From assembly GCA_051362555.1 (NCBI GenBank), contig CM120647.1, positions 3,844,001-3,908,000 on the forward strand: a DNA stretch of 64,000 bases. Direction: 5' to 3'. Positions 11,295-52,188 of the stretch are shown piece by piece. The stretch is from Lingula anatina (taxonomy: Eukaryota > Animalia > Brachiopoda). Each line of letters begins with the position of its first letter. The stretch's first letter is position 1. Position numbers and translations under genes: made by a program. Below the pieces are notes generated by a model. It worked only from the letters and a program-made list of their open reading frames with translations. It did no database searches and was not told where the DNA came from.

Positions 11295-11621
11295 TCACAT
11301 AAACTGCACTGGTAGCTCCTGTACATCCTCTGGTTTCAATGCAAGAAGACCCGCCAGATCAGAACGGTCATTGTCAGCAAACCACGTTCGTAGGTGCATC
11401 ACAGGTTCCTTATCAAATGGGCAGTTTAATACCTTGTGTAATAATGCACTGCGTTTATCTGATGATGTTTTTTCGTGCTTGATTTCTTCAATGTCCGACG
11501 TATCAATGACAAACTTTGAATGAAGAAAATCTAGCAGTCTATTAATTTCAAACCCATTATTTACTATGGAATGCAAATTTTTTCTAAGATTCTCACATTC
11601 AACCTCCCGCCTCCTTGCTTT
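11295..11621 (-). CDS. Terminal exon: CARD domain and stop codon
   Basis: ATTTCAG|AAAGCA acceptor. LRKNLHSIVNNGFEINRLLDFLHSKFVIDTSDIEEIKHEKTSSDKRSALLHKVL...DRSDLAGLL is a typical CARD pattern, ending in TGA. Confidence 0.88.
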   Translation of the reverse strand, partial: KARRREVECENLRKNLHSIVNNGFEINRLLDFLHSKFVIDTSDIEEIKHEKTSSDKRSALLHKVLNCPFDKEPVMHLRTWFADNDRSDLAGLLALKPEDVQELPVQFM

Positions 11622-11846
11622 CTGAAATATAAATACACACCGTACTTACAAACATAGGGCATAAAACTGAGTTTATATTTCCAAACACCTGCAAAATCTA
11701 TATTCTGATAATATGAATTTGCATTTTATATATTTATGTCGTTTAATTAACTCCATATAAAAGCTCATTTAAATCAGGATTGAAGGCATCTTTTAGCATC
11801 TTTCGAACATTCGGACAATATACCAAATGGGTGGAGATTAACTTAC

Positions 11847-12671
11847 TTCAACTTCATCAATTAAGTCCTTTATTTCAGATGGTTTCACTATATCATTCAC
11901 TGTGTCTCTAACCTTCCTCAGCAAATACAGGAGCTGCTGAAATGAACTCTGCAGATGGCAGAAGACAAATTCAACAGGTTTTGTGGGACAACAATCCCGC
12001 AACTGAAGTTCACGCACAACAGCCCTCCAAACTTGTGGGTTTTTCAAAATGCCCTCTAAGTTTGCTTTCACCTTAAAAGGCAAAAACTTATGAAAAACAT
12101 GGACAGATGCATGTGGTGCATCAACTATCAACCCCTGATCTCCATTCTGATGTACAATGGTTTGAATGATATTATTTATTTGTATATTAGGTGGTAAAAC
12201 CCGAGTGTCTGGAAGCTGTTGTTGCTGAGGATGTGCAATTTGGTGTTGTTGATGTTGCAAATGAGATTGCTGTTGCTGAAATTTCTGCTGATGTTGCTGC
12301 AAAGGTTCTGAAAACCCCGCAGCTGAAGGAACTTGCGTCTCGTGGGACACCAAAGGGTTCATAACTGACTGCTGCTGCAATGTCTCTGATATCCCTGTGG
12401 ATGGGAGACCCTCTTGTGCCTGGTGGGACACCACGGGGTTCATAACCGACAGTCGCTGCAATGTTTCTGATATCCCCGAGGCTGTGAGACCCTCCTGTGT
12501 CATGAACGCCAAGGGGTTCATAACTGACTGCTGCTGCAATGTTTCTGATATCCCTGTGGCTGGGAGACCCTCCTGTGCCTGGTGGGACACCACAGTGTTC
12601 ATAACTGACAGGTGCTGCATGGACACATTGGCATCTGGATGAGACTGTTCAGTGTCAGCTACCTTTGTAAT
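11847..12671 (-). CDS. Exon: 26-27 aa tandem repeats, polyQ/H tract and death-domain-like region
   Basis: CTTTCAG|ATTACA acceptor, GAA|GTAAGT donor, 825 nt open frame. LPFKVKANLEGILKNPQVWRAVVRELQL resembles the start of UNC5-type death domains. Confidence 0.82.
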
Positions 12672-12993
12672 CTGAAAGTGTAAGGCTATTATCAGACATT
12701 TGGTTGATGTAATATATATGAAAACCAAATTTTAAAATCTGCTAATGAACCTGACAGTGCTACAGTATAGAGTTATAATGTGGTATACTGTAGCAGTTAC
12801 AGATGTGAACAGAGTATGGCACAATCTGTGTGAAGATTATGCAACATGGCGTTTGCAAACAATGATTCGTGGTGTATTGCTCGCGTAACCAGTGATCAAT
12901 ATTCTTTCATGTGCACTTTTAAGGTTGACATGAAAATCTGCCTCCCTAAAGAGTGACTCCCTAGTCAGATTTTCATTATGAAAAGATGACTCC

Positions 12994-14937
12994 TAGTCCG
13001 GTGGCTTAAGGAAAAAATCGTGACATGGCGGATAAAAGCACTAAATTTTGCATGTGGGTACCTTTTGACATACTAAATCAAATATAAGCCGTAGCCCACC
13101 TACGTTTGGCCAAAAAATCCAAAATGGCCGCCAATTTATGGAATTCTATAGAAATGTGTACATACCTATGTTGATTTTTATCAAATAATTTATTTTCTCA
13201 GAGTTTTCCACGCCCTTATTACCCATTTTATTCATATATGGCAGATAGCAAACAGGTTCCCTTGGAATTTTTGAAAAAATCCAAGATGACGGTCATATGC
13301 CATTAGAAACCGCCATAGGAATACTAGTGCACAACTAATATCAGCTAGAAAGATGCGTTATCCACTATCAAATTAAGTCTGTTTCTCAGATTTTTGTTAC
13401 CCACATAATATGTTTGTGGTGAGTAACTACGAAGTGTTCTTGGGCATTTTGGAAAATCCAAGATGGCTGCCACATGAATTCTAGTGCCACATGAATTCTA
13501 GTATACGGGGGATTCAACTAATGGCAACTGGAAAGATTAATTTTCCACTATCAAATTAAGTTTGTTTCTGGGTGTTTTCCACATCCTTTCCACCCACACA
13601 ATATGCATGTGGTGAGTAACTAACATGTATTCCTGGGCATTTTGAGAAAATCCAAGATGGCCGCCATATGTCTTAAATTCAAGATATTCTAGTATTACAA
13701 AGGGTTGGAACTAATGCCAGCTAGGAAAAACATAATTCACTATCAAATTTAGTTTATTATTTTAGTGTTTTACACGTAATTATTACTCTGTGATACATAT
13801 CTAGCAGGTAATAAATGTGCATATTTGATCTTTTTGAGAAAATCCAAGATGGCCGTCATTGGCCATAGGAATACCACGGTAATTACAACTGCACATCCAT
13901 GGCCTTTCATCTACTACCAGGGTGAAATTGTGTTTGCTTATCAAGTTTTGTCCATCCTTATTAGTCCTATGATATATATCTGGTGGGTAAACAGTGTACA
14001 TCCTTGGATATTCTGAGAAAATCCATGATAGCTACAATTTGACACAGGAATACAAATGGGTGGGTTTCAATTACTGCTAGAGAGGCATATGATTTATTAT
14101 ACAATTACATTACCATGGGTTTGTTTTAAAACCAATTTATGTTTTTCATTCCATTTATTATTATTCCTATGATGTATACCTCGTCTGTAGCATGTGTGTA
14201 TCTTTGAGTATTCTGGAAAAAATTCAAGATGTCTGCCTTTTGTCATTAGAATATTCGAACATATAATCAAATAGTGCCAGAGAATAGTGCCAGAGACACT
14301 GAGTACAATTTAAATGCAGTTAACTTTAGATCGTTTTTAAATGTTTTTCATATCCTATTTATCCTTAAGAAGGTCTCTGTGTGTGTAAAAATTGTATGTA
14401 TCCTGGAGTATTATTCGGAGAAAACCCAAGATAGCTGCAAGTTATAATAGGAATATATCATTCAAATGCAAATAGGTGTCAATCAATGGAACGGTTCAGA
14501 CATTGATTCCAACATGAAATAAAGCCGTTTGATGTTCAAACATGTTGACATCCTTATTAACCTTACTCTATATAAATCTGGTGTGTAGCAAGTGTGTCTT
14601 GCGCATTTGAGAAAATTCAAGATTGCTGCAATTCACAATAGGAATAGTACATTCAACTATTGCCAGAGAGACATTGGGTTCAATGTGACATTAATTTTGT
14701 TTCTCGGTATTTCCCACATTCTTTTTGGACTTTGAGATATCTATCTGGTGGGTAACAAGTGTGTACCCTTAAGTATTTTGACAAAATATCATGATTACCC
14801 TAATTTGCCTTAGAAGTACGTATAAAATCTAATGCACCAGTTTTCCTATGGGGAAAAGAAGGCCATCTTGGACTTCCCCAAAATGATAAAATATGGACAT
14901 TAATTACCTAACAGATATGTATCATGGGATAATAATA

Positions 14938-14991
<54 letters not shown>

Positions 14992-15627
14992 AGAATGACA
15001 ACTGAAGTCCGCTTCATTTTATGTGAATTAAAAAGATGTGGAAAATACTCAGAAACAAACCTTACATATCAATTAATATTATATCTCCATGGCAGAAGAA
15101 GCCCTATGTGTATACTAGTATTCCTTTGATATAGCGGCCATCTTGGATTTTTCTCGAAATGCCTGAGAATAAAGGTTAGTTACTCACCACAAATATATTA
15201 TTTGTGTTATAAGAAACAATTAGATAGTGGGCAATGCATCTTCCTAGTTGGCATTAGTTAGTTGAAAACCCGTGTACATGATCTACAGTAGTATTCCTAT
15301 GCCATATGGCGGCCATCTTGGATTTTTCAAAAAGTCCAAGGACACTTGTTTGTTGTCGGACACATATGCATAATATGGGTAATAAGGATGTGGAAATCAT
15401 TGAGAAAATACTTAATATGATAAAAATAAACATAGGTATGTATATATTTCTACAGAATTTCACAAATTGGCGGCCATTTTGGCTTTTTTGGCCAAACGGT
15501 AATTTTTTTCCGTGGGCTACGGCTCTAATTTGATTTAGTATGTCAAAAGGTACCCACATGCAAAATTTGGTGCTTTTATCCGTCGTGTCACGATTTGGCA
15601 ATTTTTTTGCCCTAAGCAACCGGACTA
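12994..15627. mobile_element. Non-autonomous Academ-like foldback transposon with long TIRs
   Basis: Termini TAGTCCGGT...ACCGGACTA, TIRs over 300 bp, 3-bp TSD tcc, and internal degenerate repeats containing ccaagatggc. Confidence 0.75.
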
Positions 15628-15668: not shown

Positions 15669-18600
15669 GACTTGCCCTTCAAGAAATCGACGCCTTCAAG
15701 AAATCGACGCAAACCGGAAGTACGTGCTTTTTTTCGCTATTTTTCCAGGCATGCTTTGCGTAAACATTCTGCGTAGTCAAGTAAGTTGTAGCTTCTGATA
15801 CAAAGTAGCGAACGCAACATTTAAACTTTTGTTTACAATACAAAAAGCGTTGATAATGACCTTAGACATGTTGTAGAAGAAGTTAGTTGAACAGAAATAA
15901 TTTTTACTTACATAATTTTCCGTGCTTTTATGCTCTTGTCGACATCCTATTATTTGCGCATCCTTCGTATGAGTAAATTTAATTTATCATTATTTGTTGT
16001 CGCCGGTGAAACTTTGTAAGTTCAAATGAAGTAGAAAAATACCACATTCATCTGCTTTATATTTTCTAGATTTTTAAAATTCTAACAGGTGCGTGTCCTT
16101 TGCTAGAAACGTTACTGGCTGATTGATGTTTTCCACATGTTATCCCAGCCGTAATTCTCTATACCCTGGATGTTTATCACCTCCGTATTACCCGACGTAG
16201 TATTACAGGTACAATGTACACGGCTTGTAAACACATTGCATCAAACTTAGTGATAAACACAAACCTTGAATAAAGGCATCTTAAGTATCCAAATGATGTC
16301 CTTTGTTTTTGTCTCCAATTCATCTCTCTTGTGAGTGTAAATAAAATCGTCCCGATCAATTGTAGTTAGGATTGTTTTCTTGTTTGAGTCAATAAAATGT
16401 GTCACAACATACGTACATATGTAGTAGTTTGGTGAATTGCCGCTAGAGACCCTTACAATAGTACTGTTACAAGACGGGTTACGTACTTAACTGATATTGA
16501 AGTTTAATTTAAAAAGAAATCCTTTAGAATATCCAACTTTAGCAAAGGATGGCCTAGTTCTGTTTGTTTATCTAAAACAAAAGCCCAAATTATGTGTGTT
16601 TACATTTTAAAACAACATTAATTAAACCAAAAATGTCAAATCAGTTTTCAGAATGCCACGGAAATATAACTTAGAACAATTAGATGCAGCTGTTTTGTCT
16701 GTGCAAGAAGGCACGTACACGTTGACTGAAGCGGCACGCGCTTTTGGTGTGCCAGTAACAACGATTGGTGACCATGTGTCAGGTACCGAATCTTAGAATA
16801 TACAAGTAGTGGCTATAAAAGTAATGAACCGGTGAACAATATACGTGAGCATATACGCTGGTAATGACGGTATGAGTTGCATTTTATGTTCGTATTAATA
16901 ACAATAAAAACAAAGAAAAACTAAAATAAAACTTCGCAAATTGATTTGTAAATAAAAATGTTTTTATTCTAATTTTATGAGTATTTCGAAGGAAAGCACT
17001 AACACCAGAAAAACTGTCAGCGTCTTTCAAAACTACAGGGATATGGCCACTCAACCCAAGGCTATAAAGGCAGATAAATACATAGAAAACGACAGAGCAC
17101 ATAAGAAGACAAAGACAAGTGGAGACGTGTGCAGCCTCATATTGGAGTGCAGCGGTGACGACGAAGAGAGAAAAGACCAAACCACTCAGACATATTACGA
17201 TGACAATGGACAGCCGACAGACAAGACGGACTCGATGACGCAAACAGACTCTACTGACGCGACACCTGTCTGTTACTGTGGTCACATATGCAAGATTGAG
17301 CAACACCCAATGGTGAAGATGGGCATAGTGTCTCCAACCATCGCGAAAGTGCTGATTGTACCAGCAGAAGGGGCGCCCATAAGAAAAAGAAGATTTGCAA
17401 CAGATTATAGTAGATCGCAAGTACTGACGTCGGACGAAGTGATGGCAGAAAAAAGAAGAAAAGAGGAAGAAAGCCAAAGGATTGTTCAAGAAAAACAGAA
17501 GAAAAGGGAAGATGCCGCTAAGCGAAGGATAGAGAAGGAGGAGGAGAAGAAAAGAGCGGGCGAGGAGAGGGACAGAAAGAGGGCTGTGGCACACGATCGA
17601 AAGGCACAGAAGGCCTTGGAAGTGGAACGAAGAAAAGAATTAAGAAGACAGGAGAAAGAGAAAAAGAAAGAAGAGAAAAGGAGAAGAGCATATGAAAAGA
17701 GGGCAAAAAGAATTGGCATCGTGGCAGGAATTTTTTTCATTGTAGAACCGCGGGAAGGAACCGTGGCACCAAGTAGACCTACACCCCGTCGTCGGCCGGC
17801 ACCGATATGTACCGTATGCAACGGTATGGAGCCACCAAGTACTAGCACATCTGAGTTGGTGGAGGAAGTGTACGAGTTTATTCGGTGTGTCGTCTGCAAC
17901 GCGCAAGAACATCTTTCTTGCGCGAAAACACCCACATTTTTGGACGTTTTTTTATGTCATAACTGCTGGCAGGCATCAGAATAGAAGAGTATTGGTTTAG
18001 TTCTTTTCAACATGTATATTGTTTATTATTATTATTACAGATTTTCAACGTATTAATATTACAGATAAATTAATGTACATAAATTTGTGCCCCTTCATTT
18101 GCCCCTTCATGTCTGTTGTAAATTCTGTCGTCTGTGATTGTTTGTTTTCTGTCACATTGTTCATCTTGAAAATGATAGATCTTCTAAAATGTGTGTGTAT
18201 TCTTTTTTCCGTTTTGATTAAAATGGGGCGGTATACGTAATTAGGACTACCTCTGTATATTATAAGATTGTAGTGCAAATATAAGTGGTCTTAGAGAAAA
18301 GTAAAATCCTATTATGATCAAACATTATTTGTGGGTCTCGAGTTCGTTCTCAGTACGTTTACTTAAGTTCAATTTCTAATACACTTTCTATAAACATTAA
18401 TGACGCCTCACACGCTCCAAACATTATTAAAAGCCGAATTCGTAAAGCGTTTGAACTTTCTTTAAATGATATGAAAACATGAGACAACACTGAAATATAA
18501 ATCGAAATAAAAAAACACAACTTAGACTTAAATAACTTTTTTTACTTGAAAAAAAAAAAAAACAATACGCGTGGTTTGCAAAGTCATTTGCTTAATATTT

Positions 18601-18911: not shown

Positions 18912-19239
18912 TAATCCACCCACATAAATCTTATCTTGAGTATATGACCTTTGTATTGTAGTATGTATAACGGAGGATACATTGGCACTTTTTGTTAGTT
19001 TGCAGTTGTGAGAAAAATAAAAATAAAAATATGTATTTTACTACCCAATGACTCCCATATGAAAAAGTTATATATTTGATATTTTGTGGTCATACCAAGA
19101 TCTTTTCTTGCAGTATACTTTATAAAGAATATATTGGAAATATTATAAAGTGTGATGGTAAAATATTGGATGACAAAATTTATAATCATTTTCATACCCA
19201 CGGGATTTAGACTCCAGAGAAGAAAAGGCCCTATTTTAT

Positions 19240-20162
19240 TTTTTAGTTGCAATACCAACTTCTCGGACACTATAGTTTTAAACACTGGCACACCCCAGGG
19301 CTGCGTCTTATCACCTTGTTTATATACGTTATTCACCCACGACTGTGTGGCGAGGGAGGAAAATACATTTTTAATGAAGTTTGCCGATGACACAACTTTA
19401 GTCGGCTTGATACACCATAATGATGAGATGTCATACAGGCAGTCGGTTACAAGTTTAGTAAATTGGTGCACAGACAATGACTTGATATTAAATGTGAGCA
19501 AAACAAAAGAAATGATCATAGACTTCAGAAGAAATCAGATAAGAAAAAATCCCTTGGAAGTTAACGGTAAAGCGGTCGAACAGGTTTCTAATTATAAATT
19601 ACTAGGGGTTCAGCTGAATAATAGGTTAACCTGGGGCGATAACATCACGAAGCTATTGAAAAAGGCACGTCAACGAATGTATTTCTTAAGGAAATTGAAA
19701 GCTTTTACCAGAAATGTGTTTATTTTAACGAACTTTTACAGGTGTGTTTTAGAGAGTATTTTAACTTATTCAGTAACTGTTTGGTATGGACGTGCAACTG
19801 TGGAGGAGAGGAACAAGTTGGAAAAGATCGTCGAAACTGCAGGGATTGTAATTGGAACAGATCTAACTCCCGTCCATACTATATATCTAGACAGGACTAA
19901 AAAGAAAACATTATCAATAATGACAGACAGTTCCCATCCAGCCCATACTCTTTTTAAATTTTTACCTAGCAATTCGAGACTCTTAGCTTTTAAGGGTAGT
20001 AAGCGATTTTTAAATAGCTTTTATCCTTCGGCAGTAACTATTTTTAACTCTAACATGTAATTTTAATTTTCATTTTTTATATTTCAATGGCGCTACTACA
20101 GGGCAAATGATTCCCGATTTTATACATTTGTATTTTATTGGCTTAATAAATTATTATTATTA
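19240..20162 (+). mobile_element. 5'-truncated LINE, Rex1/Babar-like RT C-terminal half
   Basis: GTPQGCVLSP, KFADDT and LNVSKTKEMIIDFRR motifs, stop at 20060, AATAAA plus (TTA)n tail. Confidence 0.9.
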
Positions 20163-20569: not shown

Positions 20570-21480
20570 TGGTGCATCCCTGAGGCAAGTTCAGGTAACC
20601 CGCGTCATGGTGGTGGCCGACAAAGACTGACAACACCTCAGCAAGACCACAACTCGACCTTCCAAGTACACCGGCATCCCTTTGCCCCAGCCTATGTGCT
20701 CCAGAATGATTTCCAGAATGCAACAGGGGTTGCAACTCAAACGGACAGGAGACGTCTGCATGAAGCTTAGTTGAGGGCCAGAAGGCATCTGTTTACACTC
20801 CTCTGACTCAGCAACACAGACAAGCGCATCTACAGTTGGCAAGACATCACAAGCGGTGGACGAGCCAGCAGTGGTCATCTGTGCTGTTCCCAGATGAGTA
20901 AAAGTTTTGCTTGTAGTTTCTGGATCAATACAGGAGGGTGTGGAGATGACCCAGGGAGTGCAGCAGTCAGCCAATCATCTTCGAGCATGATCGATTTGGA
21001 GGACCAGCAGTTCTGGCATGGGGTGGGTTTTTTTATCCATGAGCGTACTGACGAATGGGACTCTCACTGGTCTCAGGTACCGGGATGAGATCGTCGACCC
21101 TATAGTCCGTCCCTACGCAGGCGCTGTTGGTGACAACACCATCGTAATGGATGACAATGCCCGTCCCCATCGAGCTAACATTGTGAATGCTTACTTCGAG
21201 CTGGAAGGAATTACTGATATGGACTGGCCTGAAAGGTCACCAGACCTCAATCAGATTGAACATCTTTAGGATTTGCTCCAAAACCACATTCGAACTTGGC
21301 AGAACGCTCTCATGACGATTCGGCAACTGGAAGATGCTTTAATGAAAGAGAGGGACCAGAACACCCAACAACAGTTATTCCGCTTTATTCAGAGCATGCA
21401 CAGAAGGTGTATCGCGGCAATTCATGCGAATGGTTGTCATACACACTACGGGGGACATTTTGCATCCAGTTTCTTGCTGA
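20570..21480 (+). mobile_element. Degenerate Tc1/mariner transposase
   Basis: GRQRLTT, MDDNARPHRA and WPERSPDLNQIEHL motifs, with frameshifts and stops. Confidence 0.88.
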
Positions 21481-22233
21481 CATGAGACATTTTTCTGATG
21501 CTTGGCATAAAGTGTTTTTAATGTGAACGTGTGTTAAGGCTCTTCTGAAGTGTTCTTGGTGGCAATTGTGTTCTTTTTCAATATATTTTCTCACTTTTAC
21601 TCTACAGTTACTAAAATTTGGGCCCGTTAAGTATTTTTAAGCAACGCAGTCACAATTGTCAAAATATCATTAGGAAAAGAATGATCCAGAGCAAATGTTG
21701 ACTAGTATACTTTGCACTGTGACGTATTTTCTGTTAGTATTTGAGAGATTTTCTTTTTTGCTGGGTGGCTATTATTTCTGGTACCTGTACCACACTGACT
21801 GAATACTCGTACTCCACGAACGATGCAATCAATTAAAATCCCTCAGAGTCTTAGGCTTCGTTCACATGGAAAGACTATTTTCTAAAAATCTATTTTCTAT
21901 TCGCGGTATCTTATGATTATGGTCTGTGCCCTGAATATCCCGCGGCGTAATTACTGGCAGTTCAGTAAAAGCACCACAAATACTACCCCCTGTATATACA
22001 AATACTAGTATATTTTCAATGATATAAACGTTATTTAATAAGAAAGGTTGATGATTTTCCCCATTGAATAAACCAAGCCATTACCATATACCAATATGCC
22101 ATATTCTGAGTACTACTGTAAACCAACTTCCTAGCTAAGAGGGTAAGATTGTCAACACATTAGTGCAGAAAGATGACTCTCTGTGCATTGATGTCATAAA
22201 CAAATTCATAGATGACCTGTAACATGACATTAC

Positions 22234-22419
22234 CTCATGTAATGGGTGGCACACTTCAAGCTCTACTGACGACAGCTGTGCAGCTTCACCCTCGTAACCC
22301 TGTTGGGCCACCAGTATTTTGCTGGTGAAAATTTTGGGGCATGGTGCTGTAGGTTCAGGGTTAAAAGAAAAGAGACAATGTGGTTTTTGGTCATCATTCA
22401 TTTTACTGTAATATAATGT
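22234..22419 (-). CDS. Exon: UPA domain C-terminal part
   Basis: T-tract CAG acceptor, GAG|GTAATG donor, 186 nt. HCLFSFNP...FTSKILVAQQG resembles the UPA HCxFxL...CKIxVxQ motif. Confidence 0.82.
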
Positions 22420-22690: not shown

Positions 22691-22861
22691 CTTTTTATCT
22701 TCCCCATGAAAAGGAATCCATCCTTGATAGTCCTTTAGAGTGACCAGTACATCATGGTTCTCTTCACATACAACTTTGCTATGAGGACAGATATACAGTT
22801 TGAAGATTCCATCAGGTACTATTTGCTTCAGACCATACCTTTTAGCCCAAAAATCGAGCCC
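22691..22861 (-). CDS. Exon: UPA domain middle; absent from the ORF track
   Basis: ATTCCAG|GGGCTC acceptor, AAG|GTATAA donor, 171 nt open frame: GLDFWAKRYGLKQIVPDGIFKLYICPHSKVVCEENHDVLVTLKDYQGWIPFHGEDKK. Confidence 0.78.
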
Positions 22862-24869: not shown

Positions 24870-25020
24870 CATAATTTCATCCATAGTATTGCGGATACAC
24901 TTCACTACAACCGAAAGCAGATCTGTCTTTGGATCAAAATTCCCAAATCCTGCAGCCAGCATCTCCTTCTTTGTCGATGATGTGGTGTATTTACACAGGT
25001 TCCACAAAGCCACAGTGCAC
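24870..25020 (-). CDS. Exon: end of ZU5 and start of UPA domain
   Basis: RCTVALWNLCKYTTSSTKKEMLAAGFGNFDPKTDLLSVVVKCIRNTMDEIM aligns by eye with the UNC5-type KxLxLAVF...IRVYC..DT motif. Phase 2 to 0. Confidence 0.82.
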
Positions 25021-28418: not shown

Positions 28419-28506
28419 CTTTTGTTCTGTCAGAAAGTTCCCCTTGCTGCAACTCATCTTCAGAATCTTCAGAAAGAACTAGAGGACTGGAGTCATCAGA
28501 ACCAAC
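28419..28506 (-). CDS. Exon: acidic linker (VGSDDSSPLVLSEDSEDELQQGELSDRTK)
   Basis: 88-nt AG/GT-bounded exon giving exactly the phase 0 to 1 change needed to join the CARD-like and ZU5 exons. Confidence 0.65.
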
Positions 28507-36620: not shown

Positions 36621-36819
36621 CTCCCACGTAGCCTCTCAAAATCACAACGCTGTTGGTCTCAAAATGATTGACATAATGATTGACAAAATGTTTTATTACA
36701 TCATTAAAAATATCTTGGTTGAAAATACTTATTACAAGGAAATAGCTTTGGACTAATATATTAGAATCCATATTAGGAAAAAAGTTAACCCAGAACTTAA
36801 ACAGAGCAGATTTTAGCAG

Positions 36820-39800: not shown

Positions 39801-40067
39801 CTGATTTATCACATTCCCTGACCCTGAGAACATAGGTGCAGACACTTCATTTGTCATGTTTGCTTGCCTAGTAACAGAGATACAGAAGTAAAACGGGTTT
39901 TCAGTAATGGCGATCCTAATTTGCATTTTTAGGAAAATTGCATAAATCTAATTCTAACAGAAACATCTTAATAATGTTCCTCGACCCTGAATATATAGGT
40001 AAAGACACTTCATTTGTCATATTCGCCTGTCTAGTTCCAGAGATATTGCAGAAAATTGGAAATCTGT
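36820..40067. repeat. About 330-bp inverted repeat pair (36820-37155 and 39670-40067) enclosing a Tc1 remnant
   Basis: cagatttccaattttctgcaatatctctggaactagacaggcg... is reverse-complemented almost perfectly at the right end. Confidence 0.85.
38154..39060 (+). mobile_element. Degenerate Tc1/mariner transposase
   Basis: IARQLNISQGAVS, RPRPGRPKVTTRREDR, FTDE and ILQDDNA motifs. Confidence 0.88.
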
Positions 40068-40411
40068 CGGCCACTTTTTTTTACTTTTTATGTCTGGAAA
40101 ACTATATATTTACAAGTGCCTGAAACAAAAAAGACCCCAAGCTTTCAAGGTCTTTTGGGTTACGCAAAATTTATGTATCATGTTTAAAAAAATTATTGCT
40201 TTGCGCCATGGGTCTTGCATATATAACAATTCTTTTAAGCAGTGGGCACAATGGCTGCCACTTTTTGTTGAAGGGGAATAGTAATAGCATCTCTTTCTTT
40301 ATAGTTTGCGATTTCGCTTTTTATTTTATTTCATTTTTTGTTTTATTTTATTACTTTTTGTTAATTAGCAGGGACTTAAAGATGAAGCTACTATATTTGA
40401 GTGTGAAATGG

Positions 40412-40805
40412 CAGGGCCGTAGCCTGAGCAAAATGCCAGGGGGGGGGGGGGCAGTAAGCGGACACGAGGGGGCAAAGCCCCCGAGGGGGGAGGGTGTGGA
40501 AAAATGTTAAGAACTGTATGTATAATGCTGCACTCTGGTGCATTTTAACTGTTATTTATTGCTCAATCAGAAGTCAGAAATTGTGGGTTCATTTTGCCAT
40601 AAGTACAGTCATTTTTTCAACACAACACGCCAATTGGACGTTTTGGCATGAACTGAGTTGGCTAAAACAGTAAACTTTTGTAAACAGATTGTTGATTGAT
40701 TGTCTGGTGGCCATGAGTGCATTTCTCACAGAATTGATACCAACTGTGCAGCTGCCCCCCCCTGCCCCCCCCCCCCCCCCCCCCCCCCCGGAGGCTACTG
40801 CCCTG
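40412..40805. mobile_element. hAT-like MITE with a 5-bp TSD
   Basis: Termini CAGGGCCGTAGCC...GGCTACTGCCCTG, with aatgg on both flanks. Confidence 0.6.
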
Positions 40806-43697
40806 AATGGACAAACAACTGTTTAGTCTTTTTTTGTAAACACATCTGTGTAATGCAATGAAAATATACATGTTAGCAGTGAACAAGTATGAGTGTTGTG
40901 CGCACGTGGGTATGTATGCGTGTATAATAGGAATATATATATATATTGTGTTTATTTATTTACTTATTTTTCCAATAATATTACGATAAAAAATTCCTTA
41001 AATTATTGTATGGCACAACAGGCCATATGTGGATTCGCTTGACGGTGCAGGTAAACAGATATGGCGCATACCCTTAGTTAAAGAGCTTTGAATGTATAGC
41101 TTCTGGGCCATGGAGCCTATCCAAGCCAAAACCAAATGTTCAACGTTGATTGTATATCAAATTTTATCATATGAAGCTAGGCATTTAACAAACCGTATAT
41201 TCAAGTATTCGAATTATATCTCTTATATAACTATGATGTTATATAATTACGATTTGAAATAAAAAGCTGACAGAATAAGACTTTCTTTTGATATGATATA
41301 TGATGTTTTGTGAATATTTAGCTTGGTCAATAAAGAAGCTATATCCCTTCCCCCTCCCAGTACCCATACTTATTTAAACCTGTAAGCTTGGAAAATCGGT
41401 AGTCTGGCTCGGGAGATGAAACGTCACCTTCACATCTGGTTTCTATCAAGCTTGTTCAGAGCTTGGACAAACATATAGGCCCGGAAATCGGGAGATGGGG
41501 GAATGTAAACATTTTGAAAGGAACATGTCTTCGCAATATGGAAATTTCAAACAAAAATAAATGGCTGATACCAAGTCCTACAACGACCATTTAAAAAAGC
41601 GATATTTTACATCTCACAAGTGTAGAGTAACAAAGCTGTGAAACACTGCTTCACTCAGTTTACGCACAGCAAGACTGTACACTCGTATGCAAAATTAAAA
41701 ATTCTTCTATGCACGCGATGCCGAAATATGGAGTTTTTGGAAAGAACCATGCTTTGTTAAAGATCGCCAAAGATATGACCAGCCCTATATAAAGAGCACT
41801 ACCAAATTAAATCATTTCGTATTGCAAAATGCAGCAAAGCTTCAGAAATGGTGGTCAGGTAATTAGTAGCGACACACTTGACTTCACACCTCTTCATCCA
41901 CATATCTTTTATGAGATGTGCTTTTAAAAAAATGCATTTTTCATATGCATACCTTTGAAGATGAAATATATCATATTTGATGTCAATTAAGTAACTTTAT
42001 TATAAGTTCATGATGTGCGTAGCTAAACAATCGAATTTTTTTCAAACTATTAATCAAAGTTTGTAAAACATTGCTTGTTTTATTCTTAGAAAGGAAATGA
42101 AGTGTTCCTGATTTTCAAATCAAGTACTTTCATCAAAGGTTCGTAATCGCCATACCAGGGGAGTCTTTCAATCCACGGTCTCATCCAGTTTTTTCCAGTT
42201 TTTTACTAGAATTTTTTGTCTTCCGAGAGGGGAATTTATGAGAAAGCAGCTACCGTCAAATGTTTGCAACATATATATTATGTGCAACCTTGCTGCTGCC
42301 AGTTGGCAAGCAATTGCTACAGTCCTGAAACCGGATTTGAATAACCAAGTGTTTACTGACAGGTTGTTTATCGCTACGCTAACGGTGTGTGACTGGTAAC
42401 CTACAGTGGTTGTAATAATTTTCATTCCGTTGTATACCGGTTTAACAACGTTTGAAATGTTTTAATCCCTATCTTGTGAATAGAAGGGGGTTGCCAAACA
42501 ATGGAGAGCCGCATAAATCCCTTCAAAATTCGAACGCACAAACACAATAACTTAGGTGGAATAACACAATACTTAAGACGAGAGAACCCCATGACGCCGG
42601 TTTCTGTGGTCCAACCCAAGGGCGACAATCCGCTGTAACTAGGTGTAATTAACAGCAGGATACATCAACCAGAAGGTCCCCATTGTTTGTTGCGGCGATA
42701 GGATTATAGCTTTAAGAGGCTGGAACCCATGCTAACGCATGCCACGCGTAGCGAACTGTCCTTTTGTTCAATAGTTTGGTTCAATAGCTGATTATGTTTT
42801 TAGTGCTGCTAACAAACTGCTAGTTAAATGTATTATCAGTTATTTCATCCAATATGAATTTTTTGGCAGTCACAAATTGAACTAAGTATTGTTTGTTTGA
42901 TTAACATGCATGAGCGTCAGCATCAATCTGTCTAAAAAATCTTATTGCATTAACTTATAAATGGTATAATTTATTTATAAACGTACTGCATTCAAGTATT
43001 TATAAAACATAAATGATAATGAAAGAGGAATAAGGAAAGAATATATTACTTATACTACACTAATATTATAATATTGAAATTAAATTAGCTGCATTGACAG
43101 AGGCGCAAGGATAATCCAACCCAAACGCGCAACAGGGGGATGTCTGACTGTGTGACCATACAATATGTGAAAGTACGGTCAATTTACAGTGTAAATCATC
43201 AGTTACAGAGGAAGGGGTCTTATTATAGCTCGCTATATATTGTTAAACGCGACTGTTATTATCTCTCGAACAAGCTTAAACCATGCCTTTACAATTACTG
43301 TGTCTCCGGCTGCCGTGCAGAAACGCTATGTCGAACGTAATTTGCTTCATGTACAGTTACAAACAAGGTACACTAACGACTTGTTTTAGATCACTCAAGA
43401 AAGAATGTGTACATGCGACACCTGAGGAAAAACAACCAAGTATGCAACTGATCTATTAATTGTAATTGCGCAGTGCATGTAAATAGATCTTTGTCCTAAC
43501 TCAGTAGTTAGGAGTAGGATGTTTGGATAAAAAGCTTCTATTCAGCTCGGTTAGAGCTAGGGCGTGATGCTACTATCATCCGATGAAACACCTACACTGA
43601 ACCCTCTACCTGAACCTGAATTCCCCCTAACTGAAACAAAAACTGCCCCTTGAACATGTCCTTTTTGAATCGTCATAGATTTGTGATTCCATTGAAC

Positions 43698-46600
43698 TAG
43701 ACTAGACGCTGATCCTGAAAAGAGGCTTATAAAGTAACTTTTACTTCCTTGGCAATCTATACTCGGTTTGACACTGGGTTATGATAGACCAATGTTTATT
43801 TTAGGGTGCTCGTCCTATAAAACTATTGGGCCGTGACATTAACAGAGGGCGCCAAAGTCAGCGAAAGGTGCGAAAAATGGACATTTTAGCCTTGTTATCA
43901 ATATTTGGTTGGTAATTACGTAATTTTAGAAGTGAATTGAATCCCAAAAATCTCTGAATCAATCAACAATATTACTTTCAATAAGATAACGGATTTTGAA
44001 GGTTTAAGAACAAATAATCTTTTCAAAATCTTAATTGAAACATAGTCTACTTTTCTGTGCTATTGCAGCAAATTTACTATGTTGGTGGTCTTTGGGCGAT
44101 CATATTTCTTTATATATTGCACTGAGAGTAATACAATTTTCCCTGTCCATTAAAAGTTATATTTCTATCTGTCTTATGAAGTTACACTTGTATTACTTCA
44201 ATATATGCCGTAATGCTACAGTTCAAACATTTCAAATAACAATTCTGGACCATCAAACCACATTTTTTTCTTTTACAAAAACTAGCTTAAAATATGTTTA
44301 TTTCATACGTAAAGGCGTCGAGGTGCAGGCTAAATGATAAACTGCATATTTATAATAACCAAATTTGCCATTTCTATCAAGACATATTTCTCGTATTAGG
44401 TCATACTTGTGAAACTAATAAATGTCATTATGCTAGCTGCATGGCAACATTTTAACACGTGAGTTGAAAGCAGGTATTATGGTTTTTTAAAGTACTTTTT
44501 GATTTATGCAGTGCGTAACTGTTCCATGAAACCATTAACAACATGAATATATATATATCATTTAAGTCATTACAATATTTAAAAAATATCATTTTTTCAT
44601 CTTTATGGATATCTTCATTACTGTCTGATACCTCTCATGTAAGATACACATGAACATTCGGACATTCTATTGGTTAGGTCCATACTGTAGTCTTTGATAA
44701 ATAATTGGGAAGCAACATGTTTTGTTCTGTGTCCATCAATTGATTCCTCGATAATATCACTGCTATCTGCTGCGGCTTGCACAAGAACATTCGGCATCAT
44801 GTCATATGACTATCCAACTCCATCCCTTTGGTTTCGGCAATGACCTCTTAAGAAAGTCTAGTTATTATAACCTTTATAAAGTCATACAGTGTAAGTGATG
44901 CAATGCAAAAGTTGATTCAGTATTTTTATTTATTTATTTATTTATATTTTTGGAAATGGCCATACGGATCACCGTCATGACTGCAATATATCTGCCTCGG
45001 TACTCTCTGACCACAGGGTCCACTGGTGATCTGCTACACATTATTATTGTATTCCTCAATTTTGTATACTATTTTAGAGGGCCCTGTGATACTAGGGGGT
45101 ATATCGCGCGTAACAGCTTGACTCATATGTTGTGCGATTGAAAATATAGGGCGTACGTACCACTGCTTCACCAGACCGCGTTTTACGAGATTTTTTTTCG
45201 GCAACAAGAATAGATAAATGGGCGGATGAAAGCAGTCTTTTGTCTTCTGGAAGACGGTCAAAAACTTACAGTTAAAGGTTTACATTGACGGGTATATATT
45301 TTTTCTGTCGGAAGATGGTCACAAATGGAAGATGGATCAACAAAAATAATTCGGAAGACTCTAGGGGTTGTCAGTCTTACAACGAGCTAACGTTTACAAC
45401 AAGGATTATGCAAAATGCCAAGTCGAAAGCTTTCTCTGAATCTAATTCAAGAGCAATGTCAAAACTAGCCACTTACATACACTTTATTGCCATTTCCAAA
45501 CGTTTCAATGTGCTTTTCTACACTTTTCTGTGCATAGCATTACATTGACTCCTACATTTCGTAGTTAGCCTGAGCAACAGTTAGATATCTGTTCTGTAAT
45601 AAACAATAAAATAGACGCGCTATTTTATGCCCCAGCTTTATCAAGAATGATTTGGGACCTGTTCATTGTACTAATAAGTAGATTAAGTATAGTGTAAGCC
45701 TTTTTGCCAATATACATTTTGTCTTTTGCACAATGGCAAATCAATAGATTAAATTTAATATCTTGAAGTACATGTTGCGACAGATTTAGACGCACTAGTC
45801 TCAGTGGTCTGAACAACGGTGGGTGAGGTAGAGGCATGTGTGAGATTACCTTCACTCTTGTAAGATTAGATCCACTGTCCGATTCAAATTCCCGGCCTTG
45901 TAACATGACGTTAAGGTGTACTAACTTCTCACAAATATACACTGCCATGTACTGATTGATATATTTCCATTTTTTGTGACGAAGGCTTTAAAATTAAATA
46001 TAATATTTTTTTGTATAATTATTCATGTATACAAATGAATATATCGGAGAAGTAATAAGCCGTGTAGGGATCTTGTATCCCGTTAGAACGGTAAGGGCTT
46101 TTTCTATGAATTAAATCTTAACTGTTTTGTTACATGCTTGTACAAGTTATCTCACCTAATAGACTATACAAATTGATGTTGATAATATTTCAATAACCTG
46201 TTTTAAAAACCAATTTATCAATAGAAAATACACGTGTAATGGGTATCATATAGGCCTATATTAGCGGATAGATGCGCGTCGCGCAAGATGACAAATAGAT
46301 ACGTTACCTGGTTTTATTTTATATTTTCATATCTCTACAAATATTTAATCATCATTTAGCCTGCACTTCGGTACTTAATGTGTGAAATAAATATATTTAA
46401 GCTAGTTTTTGTAACTGAAAAAAAAAGTGTTGCTTGATGGTCTAGAATTTTTATTTACGATATTTGATGGGCAGCATAACGGCATTTATTGGAGTAATAT
46501 AAATGTGACTTCATATGACAGATAGTAATATATCTTTAAGTGGACAGGGAAAATTGTAATATATTCAGTGCAATATAAAGAGATATATGATCGCCCAAAG

Positions 46601-46990
46601 ACCACCACCATAGTAAATTTGTCACAATCGTATAGAAAAGTAGACTATGTTTCAATTATAATAATGAAGAGAATGTTTGTTCCTTAGCCTTCAAAACAAT
46701 TTATCTTATTGAAAATAATATTGTTGATTGATTCAGAGATTTTGGGGATTTAAGTCACTTGGAACATTGCGTAATTACCGGTCAAATATTGACAACAATG
46801 CTAAAATGTCCATTTTTCTCACCTTTCTCTGACTATGGCGCCCTCTATCAGTGTCACGGCCCATTGGTTTTATAGGACGACCACCCTGAAATAAACTGTC
46901 ATACATTTGTCCATTATAATCCAGTGTCAAACCGAGTATAGATCACCGAGGAAATAAAAACTGTTTTTCTGGCCCGTAGCGTCTAGCCTA
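43698..46990. mobile_element. Non-autonomous Academ-like foldback element with several-hundred-bp TIRs
   Basis: Termini TAGACTAGACGCT...AGCGTCTAGCCTA, 3-bp TSD aac, and arms 43740-44150 versus 46540-46960 inverted. Confidence 0.78.
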
Positions 46991-47332
46991 AACGTCTTTG
47001 ATCGAGACCTCCCAAGTGACAATAACCGAGGCGTGTGTTGACTATAATGCGTGCTGAACGACAGACAACTTATAAATATTATCTGTGCTACAGGTATATA
47101 GCTTGAGGATGGTCTGTAACAGGTTGCAGACACCGTAAAACAACATTGTTGCAACTGGTTTGCGACTGCTTGCAAATCAAAAGTGGACATAGCTTCTTAA
47201 TTATCGCGCAAAGTGATCGCAAGAGATCGCCAGGTTTTGTGGTTGCCAAAAGGTTGCAAGCGCAGTGTGACCCAGGCTTGAGATTTTATAGTTGCACTAA
47301 TTATAGTTTTCGGTAAAAAAAGGCAATTGTAC

Positions 47333-47393
47333 CTGACTCTCCCCGCCTTCCGCCCCTTCTGGACAGGCCGGACAACGACGACCGCCGCCGGAT
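47333..47393 (-). CDS. Exon: RING 2 final CxxC (RSGGGRRCPACPEGAEGGESQ)
   Basis: 61-nt paralogue of exon 51640-51700 with the same splice phases. Confidence 0.87.
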
Positions 47394-47568
47394 CTGAAAC
47401 AATCGACAGGTTATTAGACTGGGTGTCGGAGTGAGGGGAGGTTAGGCATGCTTACTGATTAACACCCTTCTATACGAACGAAATTTAGAACAAAGACAAC
47501 AAAATTTAAATAGACCCATAAACAGACACAGAAACAGAAAGGACGACATTAGTAAATTTGAACCCTTA

Positions 47569-48060
47569 TACCCCCTTTACACTGGACGGCGTCCTTTCTG
47601 CGTCCTCTCTGCGACCATGAAATTTGGCACTGCTGTGGTCTTAATAAGAAGACACGAGCATTGATTTTGTATCAGAATGAATGCTCAATGATCGGCCAGT
47701 TGTCGGCACGAAAAATATTATAATTTTTTAACTCTCAAATGGGGCCGGACTGCTGGACGCAGAGAGGACGCCGTCCAGTGTAAAGGGGGCTTAAATACAT
47801 ACACGTACACAATCTACTTGTAAGCAGACACAGCAAGGGCCCCTTTACACTGGACGGCGTCCTTTCTGCGTCCAGCAGTACGGACCCATTTGAGAGTTAA
47901 AAAAATTATAATACTTAACGTGTCGACAACTGGCCGATCATTGAGCATTCATTCTGATACAAAATCAATGCTCGTGTCTCCTTATTAAGACCACAGCGAT
48001 GCCAAATTTCATGGTCGCAGAAAGGACGCAGAAAGGACGCCGTCAAGTGTAAAGGGGGTA
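47569..48060. mobile_element. Two inverted copies of a roughly 220-bp PIF/Harbinger-like MITE
   Basis: TIR cccctttacactggacggcgtcct at both ends of each copy (47569-47790 and 47839-48060). The interiors are reverse complements of each other. Confidence 0.85.
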
Positions 48061-48100
48061 TAACTAACCGACAGTCAGAAATATTAATACTTTCTGTTAC

Positions 48101-48279
48101 CTGATGAAGTCATCTAGACACGATTTACAGTGTCTATGTCCACATGGAGCTTTCTCCGGATCTCGAAGCACTAACTTACAGGTTTCACACTTGAAACGTT
48201 CGTCATTGTTTTTTGGAAACTGTGAAAGACCAAAGTTCGTTGGCGGCGGAAATTTTTTCTTTATACTGTAATCTGCATC
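48101..48279 (-). CDS. Exon: TRAF-type RING 2 (duplicate), N-terminal part; absent from the ORF track
   Basis: TTCTCCAG|GATGCAGAT acceptor, ATCAG|GTAACA donor. Translation DADYSIKKKFPPPTNFGLSQFPKNNDERFKCETCKLVLRDPEKAPCGHRHCKSCLDDFI. Confidence 0.88.
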
Positions 48280-48977
48280 CTGGAGAAAAATGATAATATA
48301 AATGTACGTTGTATAAGGAGTTACACGGACGAATGATACACTATAATATGTAAAGTGCTCCTATTTCATTTATTCTAAAAGGAGTAACATGTACACAGGC
48401 GCATGATACATAGGTGCTCCTTTATAATTAAGATGAAAAGGGGGTTTTAATAGTATTTCAGCCGGAGAGAGATAGAGACAGAGAGAGAGGGAAAGTGTTC
48501 CCGGTTTTCAAAATAAAACGAAAGTTTTTTTATGATTAAGTCATATATTATCATCACTTATTATTTTTAAAACGGCAAACAGGCATGTGTTTTTGTCGAT
48601 TATGATTATATGTTTTTAATTGCAATAGGAAAAAGTCAAGTACATAATAAACTTGACAAGCACACAATACTCATTACAATAGCAGAGTCCACAAGATTTT
48701 AACATTAAAAAATTACAGTCAACTTGTATACATGCAACTACACGAATCCATATATACTCATTCATTTCTGCCAAATAACATTGAAATTTTCTACATCTTG
48801 AGATACAAAATAAATATTGATATCTTCGCCGCTAGTTTGCATTTTCTGTCCCAGAGTGCACCAGTGCAAAAATGATCAGGCTTCACTGAGTTGAATAAAA
48901 AAAATCATTTAAATAAATAAATAAATAAATCACATATTTGTATAACTTTAACCTTCGGGTTGCAATATTCCAATAAA

Positions 48978-49025
<48 letters not shown>

Positions 49026-50203: not shown

Positions 50204-50557
50204 TTTTGAATTTCTATCAATCCTTGCAAAGTCTTGTAAATCTTTAATCTGCCAATCTGGAGTAGTGCCGTGTATGCCATATGAGCACAAATAGTTCGTT
50301 TTCGGATGATCTGCAACATGGGTCTCGTTGTAAACACCATCCAATATTGAAGTTGTGGCTCGTTCAGCAGCTCTGGTCAGTTCTTTCTCTTCTTGCATTA
50401 AATATTCAGGTACTGCCGATTGCTTTTGACTATCTGACTGTTTCAAAGTTCCTGTGAAAAGTCTTTGTTCACCACTCTCTGTGTCTCTGTCCGAACGCGC
50501 TCTGAGCTCTGACTCAGGAATAGTGGATTGTCTTAATGGACATGACTTCTCATGATT
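50204..50557 (-). CDS. Exon: end of TRAF zinc finger (HEKSCP) plus linker
   Basis: TTTTACAG|AATCATGAG acceptor, AAA|GTAAGT donor, 354 nt, open frame. HxxxCP completes the zinc finger. Confidence 0.85.
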
Positions 50558-50975: not shown

Positions 50976-51077
50976 CTCCTGGTAGTCACGCAAACATCCC
51001 CTCCATCCACAGCCATCTTGGTCACAGACTACCCTCAGTGTATGAATTTCTTTTCTCATTCCTTTATCCGGAAATAC
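50976..51077 (-). CDS. Exon: TRAF RING-to-zinc-finger linker and zinc finger 1 start
   Basis: VFPDKGMRKEIHTLRVVCDQDGCGWRGCLRDYQE resembles the TRAF motif VFPDxxxxREIxxLxVxCxxxGCxWxG. 102 nt, phase 0-0. Confidence 0.9.
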
Positions 51078-51471
51078 CTGAAACAGTTGAAACATATTTT
51101 CAAAAAGAAGGGTGTAATGCATACAAACTGCATGGGTATATCAATGCGGTGAATACCCACTACTAGAATTTACCCCACGTTTGTTTGCAGTAATACGGAT
51201 TCGACTCGGTGAACGCTGTAATAAATTAGTATTGCATAAGCCGACATGACGTAACGAATTTTATGTTCAGTGATCAAAATACCCTCTCCTAGAGGTTTCA
51301 CTTGTGCTGGCATAAATATTGAAATAATTTTTGATCATTTTATGTGGCAAAGCGTGCTTTTAGAGGTCAGCTTGGAAACGCACTGGTGGTCACTACGAAC
51401 TTTTTCCAACTCAAAATAATGCTAGTATTTATGAGATCAATTTCCATGCTTCCTTTGCAGAAAAAAAAAGA

Positions 51472-51527
<56 letters not shown>

Positions 51528-51639
51528 GATAAATAAAATAAAAAAGATAAAATATACAATAATAATCATAACCCGCTGCTAGGTATAAAATGCATATTTG
51601 GTATAATAGCGTGCAGTAAAAAAAAAATAATAACTGTAC

Positions 51640-51700
51640 CTGACGTTCATCACCTCCTGCGCCTTCCGGACAGGCCGGACAAATTCGACCACTGCTGGAT
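51640..51700 (-). CDS. Exon: RING 1 final CxxC (RSSSGRICPACPEGAGGDERQ)
   Basis: 61-nt exon TTTCAG|ATCC...CGTCAG|GTACAG, phase 2 to 0. It supplies the last Cys pair of the RING. Confidence 0.88.
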
Positions 51701-51979
51701 CTGAAACAATAGACAGATCACCAGAAAAAAGGGCAGACAGTAGGAGTGAGGAGGGTTTGACCTTCTTACTCACAATGACACCCTATACACACGACAGACT
51801 GACAAGCTGACTAACTCAGTGACCCAAAGACCGATAGACAGACGTAGTGACAAAAAATGTCGACATGCATAAATGTAAAGACGAATATGAATATACATAC
51901 ACAAAGGCCAATAAGTTGTATGCAGACACATTGACTGACAGACAGACAGACAGACAGGCTTAAAAATACTTCCTGTTAC

Positions 51980-52188
51980 CTGATGAAATCATCTAGACAC
52001 GTCTTACAGTGCCTGTGCCCACAAGGAGCTTGCACCGCATCTCTCAACACCATCTTGCAAGTTTTACACTTGAAACGTCCGTCAATAGTGCATAGAAACA
52101 GTGCAAGAGCAAAGCCTCCTGCCTTGGGCTGTGTCGTCACGCCGTTTGACGGCTGCAAAGAAATGGACCATATACCTGCATCTGCGTC
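51980..52188 (-). CDS. Exon: TRAF-type RING 1, N-terminal part
   Basis: TTCTCAAG|GACGCAGAT acceptor, ATCAG|GTAACA donor. Translation DADAG...GGFALALFLCTIDGRFKCKTCKMVLRDAVQAPCGHRHCKTCLDDFI matches the TRAF2/3 RING pattern (CxxC...QxxCGHRxCxxC). Confidence 0.9.

Follow-up and report, generated by a model that had tools for sequence, protein, structure and literature searches.

The question raised by this locus is whether a TRAF-type RING cassette and a ZU5-UPA death-fold core are parts of one protein or products of two neighbouring genes. The window analysed is a 64,000 nt stretch of AT-rich animal DNA from the brachiopod Lingula anatina (assembly GCA_051362555.1, contig CM120647.1, positions 3,844,001–3,908,000). 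The gene model has 14 exons on the minus strand and runs from position 52188 to 11295. It was read by hand, and the exon set is identical to that of the first-pass annotation, an earlier note made from the sequence of the window. The 13 introns all have GT-AG ends, and their phases agree. The exons splice to 3393 nt, encoding 1130 amino acids (aa) plus a stop codon with no internal stops, which upholds the earlier claim of 14 GT-AG exons in a single open frame of about 1130 aa.

We lean towards a fusion of the RING cassette to the ZU5 core in one chain. The explanation that we prefer goes further and is more tentative. It is that of one gene in which a TRAF-derived RING-zinc finger cassette, with a duplicated RING, was exon-shuffled onto a Lingula ZU5-UPA/death-like/CARD adaptor, the product being an uncleaved, UNC5B-like autoinhibited scaffold and not a stand-alone ligase. 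The observations behind it are an intact frame, the domains themselves, membership in a clade of Lingula proteins, selection acting on each RING and the lack of a MATH exon.

Gene model

A codon model was applied to the 14 exons on a leave-one-out basis. Just 0–12.5% of non-exon open frames equal or exceed any one of them, and for exons 1–3 and 5–8 at most 2% of these frames score as high. Since the exons outrank most non-exon open frames, the 14-exon frame is beyond chance. A Pfam scan covered 11 of the 14 exon frames (the short exons 2, 6 and 8 being left out) and shows a RING in exons 1 and 5, TRAF2_zf in exon 3, ZU5 in exon 9 and a CARD in exon 14. There is no Pfam match in exons 4, 7 and 10–13.

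Exon 1 begins at a phase-0 acceptor, and its sole in-frame ATG (position 52053, Met46) is within RING1. As there is no in-frame ATG ahead of RING1, an upstream exon is missing from the model. A candidate at 56548–56414 was rejected. It adjoins a degraded protease-like frame that has no Pfam match and that we take to be a retrotransposon remnant. An in-frame exon at approximately 24640–24460 was dropped because the paralogs go directly from exon 10 to exon 11.

The RING cassette

Exons 1, 3 and 5 match the solved N-termini of TRAF6, TRAF2, TRAF3 and TRAF5. Exon 1 (aa 1–70, positions 51980–52188) represents the first part of RING1, a TRAF-type C3HC4 RING (Pfam zf-C3HC4, E 1e-4), with PDB matches to TRAF6 (E 4e-9), TRAF2 (6e-7) and TRAF3 (4e-6). 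Exon 2 (aa 70–90, 51640–51700) encodes the end of RING1 with its last CxxC (Cys77, Cys80). Exon 3 (aa 91–124, 50976–51077) encodes the TRAF linker helix and the first half of zinc finger 1 (ZF1; Cys108, Cys113), and matches TRAF2_zf at E 2e-4 and TRAF2 (PDB 3knv) at E 1e-7. Exon 4 (aa 125–242, 50204–50557) completes ZF1 (His126, Cys130) and continues into a unique linker; a protein search with this exon returned no homolog from 237 candidates, a weak blank. Exon 5 (aa 243–302, 48101–48279) is the first part of RING2, with a TRAF3_RING match above the Pfam cut-off (E 2e-7) and a PDB match to TRAF3 (E 5e-9). Its protein search, with 10 candidates, returned nothing and is likewise a weak blank. 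Exon 6 (aa 302–322, 47333–47393), placed by the splice model, encodes the end of RING2 and has a phase-0 donor. Exons 5 and 6 are a tandem copy of exons 1 and 2, splice sites included, and exons 2 and 6 with their flanks have 80% DNA identity. The earlier claim of two TRAF-type RINGs is thus borne out by Pfam and by the PDB matches.

Both RINGs are under purifying selection. A comparison of RING1 with RING2 gives a ratio of nonsynonymous to synonymous substitution of 0.18 over 54 codons (Fisher p 1e-5) and 0.30 over 65 codons (p 9e-4), and all eight zinc ligands are retained in each. The positions that contact the ubiquitin-conjugating enzyme (E2) are altered. In the alignment to TRAF6, the contact residues Ile72 and Leu74 are replaced by Thr and Lys in both RINGs. 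The RING1 unit has Lys99 at the position of the TRAF6 "Arg-link" (Arg125), as read from the PDB alignments, and RING2 is without a linker helix and without ZF1. A TRAF study (PMC5702613) describes RING dimers in which one RING binds the E2~ubiquitin conjugate while the partner provides the linker helix and ZF1. It reports that the I72D/L74R mutation of TRAF6 abolishes Ubc13 binding and that Arg125 of the linker helix is required. TRAF2 apparently has no E2 binding, and TRAF5 can lend its ZF1 to TRAF6 in a heterodimer (PMC5702613). Because of the Thr and Lys at the E2 contacts, the Lys at the Arg-link and the lack of a linker helix and ZF1 in RING2, poor ubiquitin ligase function is predicted for the two RINGs, and autonomous ligase (E3) activity is doubtful. 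The TRAF-type ubiquitination proposed in the first-pass annotation is weakened accordingly.

The TRAF-C/MATH domain and the coiled coil are given as defining TRAF features in the same source (PMC5702613). Neither is found by Pfam in the 11 exon frames scanned, in 119 frames of the gap between exons 6 and 7 or in 126 other frames of the window (frames of at least 36 codons), in agreement with the earlier claim that MATH is absent. No second zinc finger exon is found by tblastn of the model.

The ZU5-UPA core and its relatives in Lingula

A search with exon 9 returned four proteins among 181 candidates, all from Lingula anatina. Two of these, P0001 (XP_013411131.1) and P0002 (XP_013381545.1), are colinear with exons 8/9–14 and span the 9,562-bp intron 12. 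Exon 8 (aa 403–432, 28419–28506) is an acidic linker exon with weak similarity to the same place in P0001, the score being reached by 52 of 3000 shuffles; it is within a blastp match covering aa 407–937. Exon 9 (aa 432–578, 26774–27212) encodes ZU5 (Pfam E 1e-21) and is 81% and 69% identical to P0001 and P0002, respectively. Exon 10 (aa 578–628, 24870–25020) encodes the end of ZU5 and the start of UPA, as placed by the columns of a 42-row alignment (A1). The middle and the end of UPA are in exon 11 (aa 629–685, 22691–22861) and exon 12 (aa 686–747, 22234–22419). Both are colinear with the paralogs, and the UPA fold is seen on the P0002 model described below. Exon 13 (aa 748–1022, 11847–12671) has 27-aa repeats (an 81 bp × 3.5 tandem array), a Gln-rich linker, a short motif and a death-domain-like helical domain. 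Exon 14 (aa 1023–1130, 11295–11621) encodes the C-terminal CARD (Pfam E 1e-6, above cut-off) and the stop codon. This is the only solid CARD in the protein.

The short motif at aa 910–925 (approximately 12140–12190, minus strand) is Ile/Gln/Asn-rich, beta-prone and ends in NGDQ. It is common to the window gene, P0001 and P0002 in an otherwise divergent linker. It looks RHIM-like; Pfam RHIM gives no match to it.

The full phmmer search found 386 relatives, of which 150 were listed. A tree was made from 36 ZU5-UPA regions; of the hits that were named or scanned with Pfam, it takes in those whose ZU5-UPA span was of sufficient length and excludes the rest. The window model, P0001 and P0002 form a three-row clade (support 100/99). 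They are within a 10-row clade (100/98) made of the model, seven named Lingula proteins and two others, which is separate from the UNC5 receptors. By sequence comparison, exons 8–14 belong to a Lingula clade of ZU5-UPA/death-like/CARD proteins. The locus is an intact animal gene for a predicted scaffold of cell death or immunity and a member of a lineage-specific clade of death-fold adaptors, as the first-pass annotation had proposed in calling it a lineage-specific ZU5-UPA death-fold scaffold.

The clade members, which are public gene models, differ in their N-termini. P0002 begins with death and CARD domains, P0014 (XP_013381088.1) with C2HC fingers, P0018 (XP_023931638.1) with RNB and helicase domains, and P0003 (XP_013388275.1) with Roc-COR. 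P0005, an older model of the P0001 locus, has a CARD-like stretch ahead of ZU5. This swapping of N-termini supports the fusion.

Several of the relatives are of interest in themselves. P0018, HELZ2-like by name, has an RNB nuclease, an SF1 helicase, a ZU5 with an intact HF/T site, a UPA-like region, a helical domain and a weak CARD-like end, and is a candidate RNA-sensing FIIND-like protein. P0014 retains HF/T and has a C-terminal CARD_2 match, and P0003 has QF/C. Outside these, P0036 (Ptychodera flava XP_070578737.1) and P0054 have Rel-homology (NF-kB-type) DNA-binding and dimerisation domains fused to ZU5-UPA-Death. Further ZU5 fusions are LRR-TIR-ZU5 (P0126), NACHT-ZU5 (P0097) and SH2-ZU5-UPA-Death (P0026).

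Cleavage site and fold

The sequence Asn585-Leu586-Cys587 (N-L-C) in exon 10 is located at the position of HF/S-type autoproteolysis in alignment A1. In the 42 rows, HF/S or HF/T is present in 23, QF/C in five and NL/C in three (two loci). In one study (PMC3210808), the site is HF/S in PIDD and SF/S in CARD8/NLRP1, and the Phe is described as a needed strain anchor whose counterpart in UNC5B is Leu-677. The same source indicates that Cys is able to act as nucleophile and that Nup98 and CARD8 can to some degree do without the His (PMC3210808). Autocleavage of ZU5 at N-L-C is predicted to be unlikely.

P0002 was folded as a paralog stand-in from a 42-row alignment, with a mean predicted local distance difference test (pLDDT) score of 73 and approximately 85–95 over the domains. 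The best structural match of this model, at residues 214–675, is the ZU5-UPA-DD of UNC5B (3g5b; Z 23.9, root-mean-square deviation (rmsd) 3.6, 345 aligned). The next matches are ankyrin-B (Z 19.5), CARD8 (Z 15.5) and NLRP1 (Z 14.4). The last domain matches the Apaf-1 CARD with a Z of 13.6 and an rmsd of 1.1 over 88 residues. The helical domain of exon 13 (approximately aa 936–1022) matches death domains weakly by hhalign (probability 29.6, E 6e-4), and its counterpart lies within the stretch of the P0002 model that aligns with UNC5B. It has no Pfam Death match and is undetected by a custom death-domain hidden Markov model (HMM) of 27 retrieved domains. Thus the domain ahead of the C-terminal CARD is, weakly, death-like: the death domain of the first-pass annotation has the profile match and the paralog model on its side and lacks the Pfam match. 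The core appears closer to the non-cleaving UNC5B than to PIDD. The "PIDDosome-like core" put forward earlier loses ground, as there is one ZU5 and not two, N-L-C and not HF/S, and the paralog model is nearest to UNC5B.

Exon 7 and the exon 6–exon 7 join

Exon 7 (aa 323–402, 28857–29096) has a higher codon score than all 56 null frames and is probably a real exon. It ranks 15 of 2001 with an HMM of the CARDs of this family. Its summed alignment score to seven CARDs is equalled by 3 of 3000 shuffles, with only two of the seven individually notable. A single-sequence model has three helices (pLDDT 61). No match to a CARD is present in Pfam, Atlas or a Foldseek fold search. Exon 7 may represent a shortened, degenerate CARD, but this assignment is weak. 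The description "flanked by CARDs" therefore stands for the C-terminal CARD, whereas the middle one is weakly CARD-like.

The RING side and the ZU5 side are joined across a putative intron of 18,236 bp (29097–47332) that has repeats and transposon remains. The exon 6 donor and the exon 7 acceptor are on the same strand, colinear and in phase 0-0, with no stops. Read-through of exon 6 gives 11 residues and then a stop. None of 119 minus-strand frames of at least 36 codons in this intron matches any Pfam family (E ≤ 0.005), MATH included. The selected RINGs need a 3' end, and no continuation is recognised in the gap. Long introns are normal in this gene, since the intron between exons 12 and 13, also repeat-filled (9.5 kb), is inside the paralog-colinear, conserved part. 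The gap has one strong splice-site candidate, at 46885–46823 (63 nt), which is in frame. It was rejected as a copy of exon 3: the DNA match is reached by 147 of 500 shuffles, and the segment is part of a dispersed repeat of 600 bp, the other copy of which has the same sequence. A transposase-like helix-turn-helix (HTH) frame is also present in the gap, on the plus strand.

Exons 1–7 have 50 CpG against 47 expected, and exons 8–13 have 23 against 56 expected. The boundary is sharp and is between exons 7 and 8 (28419–29096), not in the gap. Low CpG is described as a mark of old gene-body methylation in invertebrates in PMC8330077. The break fits exons 1–7 as one grafted module and also exon 7 as a promoter-near first exon, so that it is not decisive.

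RNA was examined in four of nine listed runs from the same species, with 6–30% of each run read, over region 28400–48350. Reads on the gap are mostly 90–95% alike and come from other repeat copies. The data show low expression in the four runs and are neutral on the join.

Proposed mechanism and alternative explanations

If the gene is a single one, the death-like domain would be clamped by ZU5-UPA in the resting state, on the model of the UNC5B structure. A signal would open the clamp, and the death-like domain and C-terminal CARD could then recruit CARD-caspases or death-fold adaptors. Such partners would exist in brachiopods, as CARD-caspases and GSDME are reported there in a homology survey (PMC11508797). 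RING1-linker-ZF1, a poor E2 binder, may pair in trans with a true TRAF RING, serving either as a decoy or as a donor of ZF1 in the way of TRAF5 with TRAF6. Pairing of this kind would link ubiquitin signalling with the death-fold end. As to the signal upstream, one can only guess at an immune or stress cue that induces the gene, given its near silence in the four runs.

A number of findings weigh against this interpretation. No first exon or start codon for exon 1 is found in the window, the scan up to position 64000 giving transposase frames alone. The exon 7 acceptor is weak, with a leave-one-out score of 0.8 compared with approximately 9–12 for seven of the other 13 exons, and exon 7 has an in-frame ATG (29066, Met333) in an A-rich context that could start a separate gene. 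The high CpG of exon 7 is compatible with a first exon near a promoter. RNA depth over exon 8 and most of exon 7 is 0, 0, 0.12 and 0, and no read spans the exon 6–exon 7 junction; none of the 15 joints displayed belongs to the gene (8 more joints and 533 loose ends are outside this display). A RING is present in none of the 160 retrieved proteins, as judged by a RING pattern and the model's own RINGs, and the public models of P0001 and P0002, the two nearest paralogs, have none. There is also none among 52 Pfam-scanned relatives in the families displayed (the best five where there were more). The Lys at the Arg-link weakens a TRAF5-like helper role. The structure was predicted for P0002 and not for the window protein; its alignment used distant ZU5-UPA-death proteins, so that the death-like call may be biased, and the Atlas neighbour of the helical domain is a set of COMMD helices at 0.82, a lead only.

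Several of these findings suit a pair of neighbouring genes, which is a distinct possibility though not one that we favour. The 5' gene would be a MATH-less TRAF fragment (RING-ZF1-linker-RING) that ends by read-through of the exon 6 donor or in an unrecognised exon, and the 3' gene an ordinary CARD-ZU5-UPA-death-like-CARD gene that starts at the exon 7 ATG behind a non-coding first exon. That ATG coincides with the beginning of the CARD-like helix. What precedes ZU5 in P0002 and in the older model P0005 is a CARD and not a RING, and the RING exons, unlike exons 8–13, are not depleted in CpG. The weak acceptor and the lack of a junction read point the same way, as does the stop after 11 codons of read-through, which is followed approximately 850 nt on by AATAAA sites, signals expected by chance in AT-rich DNA. 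However, the exon 6 donor and exon 7 acceptor are in phase, the gap is without a recognisable terminal or TRAF exon, and exon 7 is open upstream of the ATG back to the acceptor. Purifying selection on a protein of RING-ZF-RING only would also be odd. Least probable of all is a juxtaposition that does not work as a gene, either because the copy was silenced recently or because the two sides were joined across the repeat-filled gap by the assembly or between haplotypes. Near silence of exons 7 and 8 and a start codon not found in the window would be expected in this case, and a near-identical protein is absent from the protein database search results, which is weak evidence. But all 14 exons are intact without a stop or frameshift, the RINGs are under selection, the RNA reads examined are 6–30% of each run, and inducible genes are often silent.

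Two further explanations accept one chain and differ in what it does. An active TRAF-type E3 is unlikely, one that would build K63 chains at or next to a death-fold platform and whose RING pair would be a built-in dimer replacing clustering by coiled coil and MATH. It agrees with the retained zinc ligands and the selection on them, and RING2 with RING1-ZF1 could mimic the layout of the TRAF RING dimer as this is described in PMC5702613; the replaced contact residues in both RINGs and the Lys at the Arg-link argue otherwise, RING2 lacks the linker helix, which holds part of the dimer interface, and the fusion itself is unproven. Less probable again is a self-arming sensor of the CARD8/NLRP1, inflammasome type. 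The chain would be cut between Leu586 and Cys587 by an N-S acyl shift, the tandem TRAF RINGs would cause the N-terminal half to be degraded, and the UPA-death-like-CARD half, once free, would form a caspase-activating filament. ZU5-UPA with a C-terminal CARD is the layout of CARD8, the third structural match of the P0002 model. Cys is a possible nucleophile, the clade members P0014 and P0018 retain HF/T, functional degradation has been described as a model (PMC7483925), and CARD-caspases and GSDME are reported from brachiopods (PMC11508797). Both His and Phe are replaced, however, the Phe being the strain anchor that is Leu in UNC5B (PMC3210808), and N-L-C is rare in A1 compared with HF/S or HF/T. 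This explanation also needs non-canonical cleavage and a working RING together, and E3 activity is doubtful. If it were true, the protein would belong to a family in brachiopods whose members carry exchangeable N-terminal "bait" modules (RING, helicase-nuclease, Roc-COR, zinc fingers) ahead of one and the same death-fold output. The tentative preference thus remains with one gene and an uncleaved, autoinhibited scaffold.

Significance

If the join is true, a TRAF-type RING is fused to a ZU5-UPA death-fold core, a combination unseen among the 160 retrieved proteins. A TRAF fragment would have been captured by a family that swaps N-terminal modules on a fixed ZU5-UPA-death-CARD output, as NLRP1 and CARD8 vary their N-termini, and this would be a testable invertebrate parallel to the FIIND sensors. 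The Lingula clade, with its helicase-, Roc-COR- and zinc finger-capped members, some with HF/T, offers a starting point for work on brachiopod immunity even if there is no fusion. Expectations should be modest, since immune modules are often shuffled in marine invertebrates (PMC8195603) and the fusion depends on a single gene model. The same source describes wide shuffling, in which TRADD-N proteins carry UPA-ZU5 and E3 modules among others and Lingula is one of the outliers, and the general phenomenon is already known. Neither a RING-ZU5 protein nor the Lingula clade is described in the full-text literature found, although a case could be present in the source-data architecture lists of PMC8195603 or in subscription literature on immunity in brachiopods. 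The first-pass annotation did not recognise the architecture from any characterised protein, and among the proteins retrieved this still holds for the specific combination, though not for domain shuffling as such.

Neighbouring sequence

A 146-bp satellite (52655–54384; 11.9 copies at 93%) is directly upstream of exon 1, and a diverged copy is in intron 9 (25333–25705). A 500-bp palindromic element at 47566–48063, in the intron between exons 5 and 6, has many RNA reads from other copies. Inside intron 12 there is a 342-codon open frame (16956–17981, plus strand) with a charged middle, a Cys/His-rich end and no Pfam match, which is probably transposon-derived. Transposon remains are found at 19149–20057, 20991–21482, 33890–36753, 37975–38854 and 58209–59184 (all plus strand) and at 61399–63499. 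They include a reverse transcriptase frame (Pfam RVT_1), DDE_3 and HTH transposase-like pieces, and a broken run without a Pfam match that is presumably LINE-like (long interspersed nuclear element). In the 126 other frames of the window (8 low-complexity frames dropped and 4 added), Pfam shows DDE_3 twice and a ribosomal family once by chance.

Comparison with known systems

The window cassette has the C3HC4 RING, linker helix and ZF1 of TRAF2/3/5/6. It differs from them in that the RING is duplicated, the E2 contacts and Arg-link are replaced, and no other intact zinc finger follows, nor a coiled coil or MATH domain. The proteins cIAP1/2 (BIR-UBA-CARD-RING) also have a RING and a CARD in one chain. 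They differ in RING class and order and in having no ZU5-UPA, and cIAP1 (3t6p) turned up solely as a CARD match of the paralog model.

PIDD1 and the window protein both have a ZU5-UPA-death-fold core. In PIDD1 there are LRRs and a pair of ZU5 domains that both end in HF/S, whereas the window protein has one ZU5, no LRR by Pfam, N-L-C, RINGs and a CARD in cis. In CARD8/NLRP1, as here, ZU5-UPA is followed by a C-terminal CARD and preceded by a variable N-terminus. The window protein is without SF/S or HF/S, NACHT and LRR, and a Gln-rich linker and a death-like domain are located between UPA and CARD; identity in the structural alignment is 8%. UNC5B (3g5b) is the nearest fold to the paralog model, and the window protein and UNC5B both have Leu at the anchor position. 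UNC5 receptors have an Ig/TSP1 ectodomain and a membrane span, neither of which is in the model (there is no Pfam match to Ig or TSP1 in the exon, gap or other window frames), while the window protein has the extra CARD(s) and the RINGs and is in another clade.

The closest relatives are P0001 and P0002, automatically named "UNC5". Their public models have no RING, P0002 starting with death and CARD domains and P0001 with a short unique N-terminus. They share with the window gene the order ZU5-UPA, Gln-rich linker, death-like domain and CARD, as well as N-L-C.

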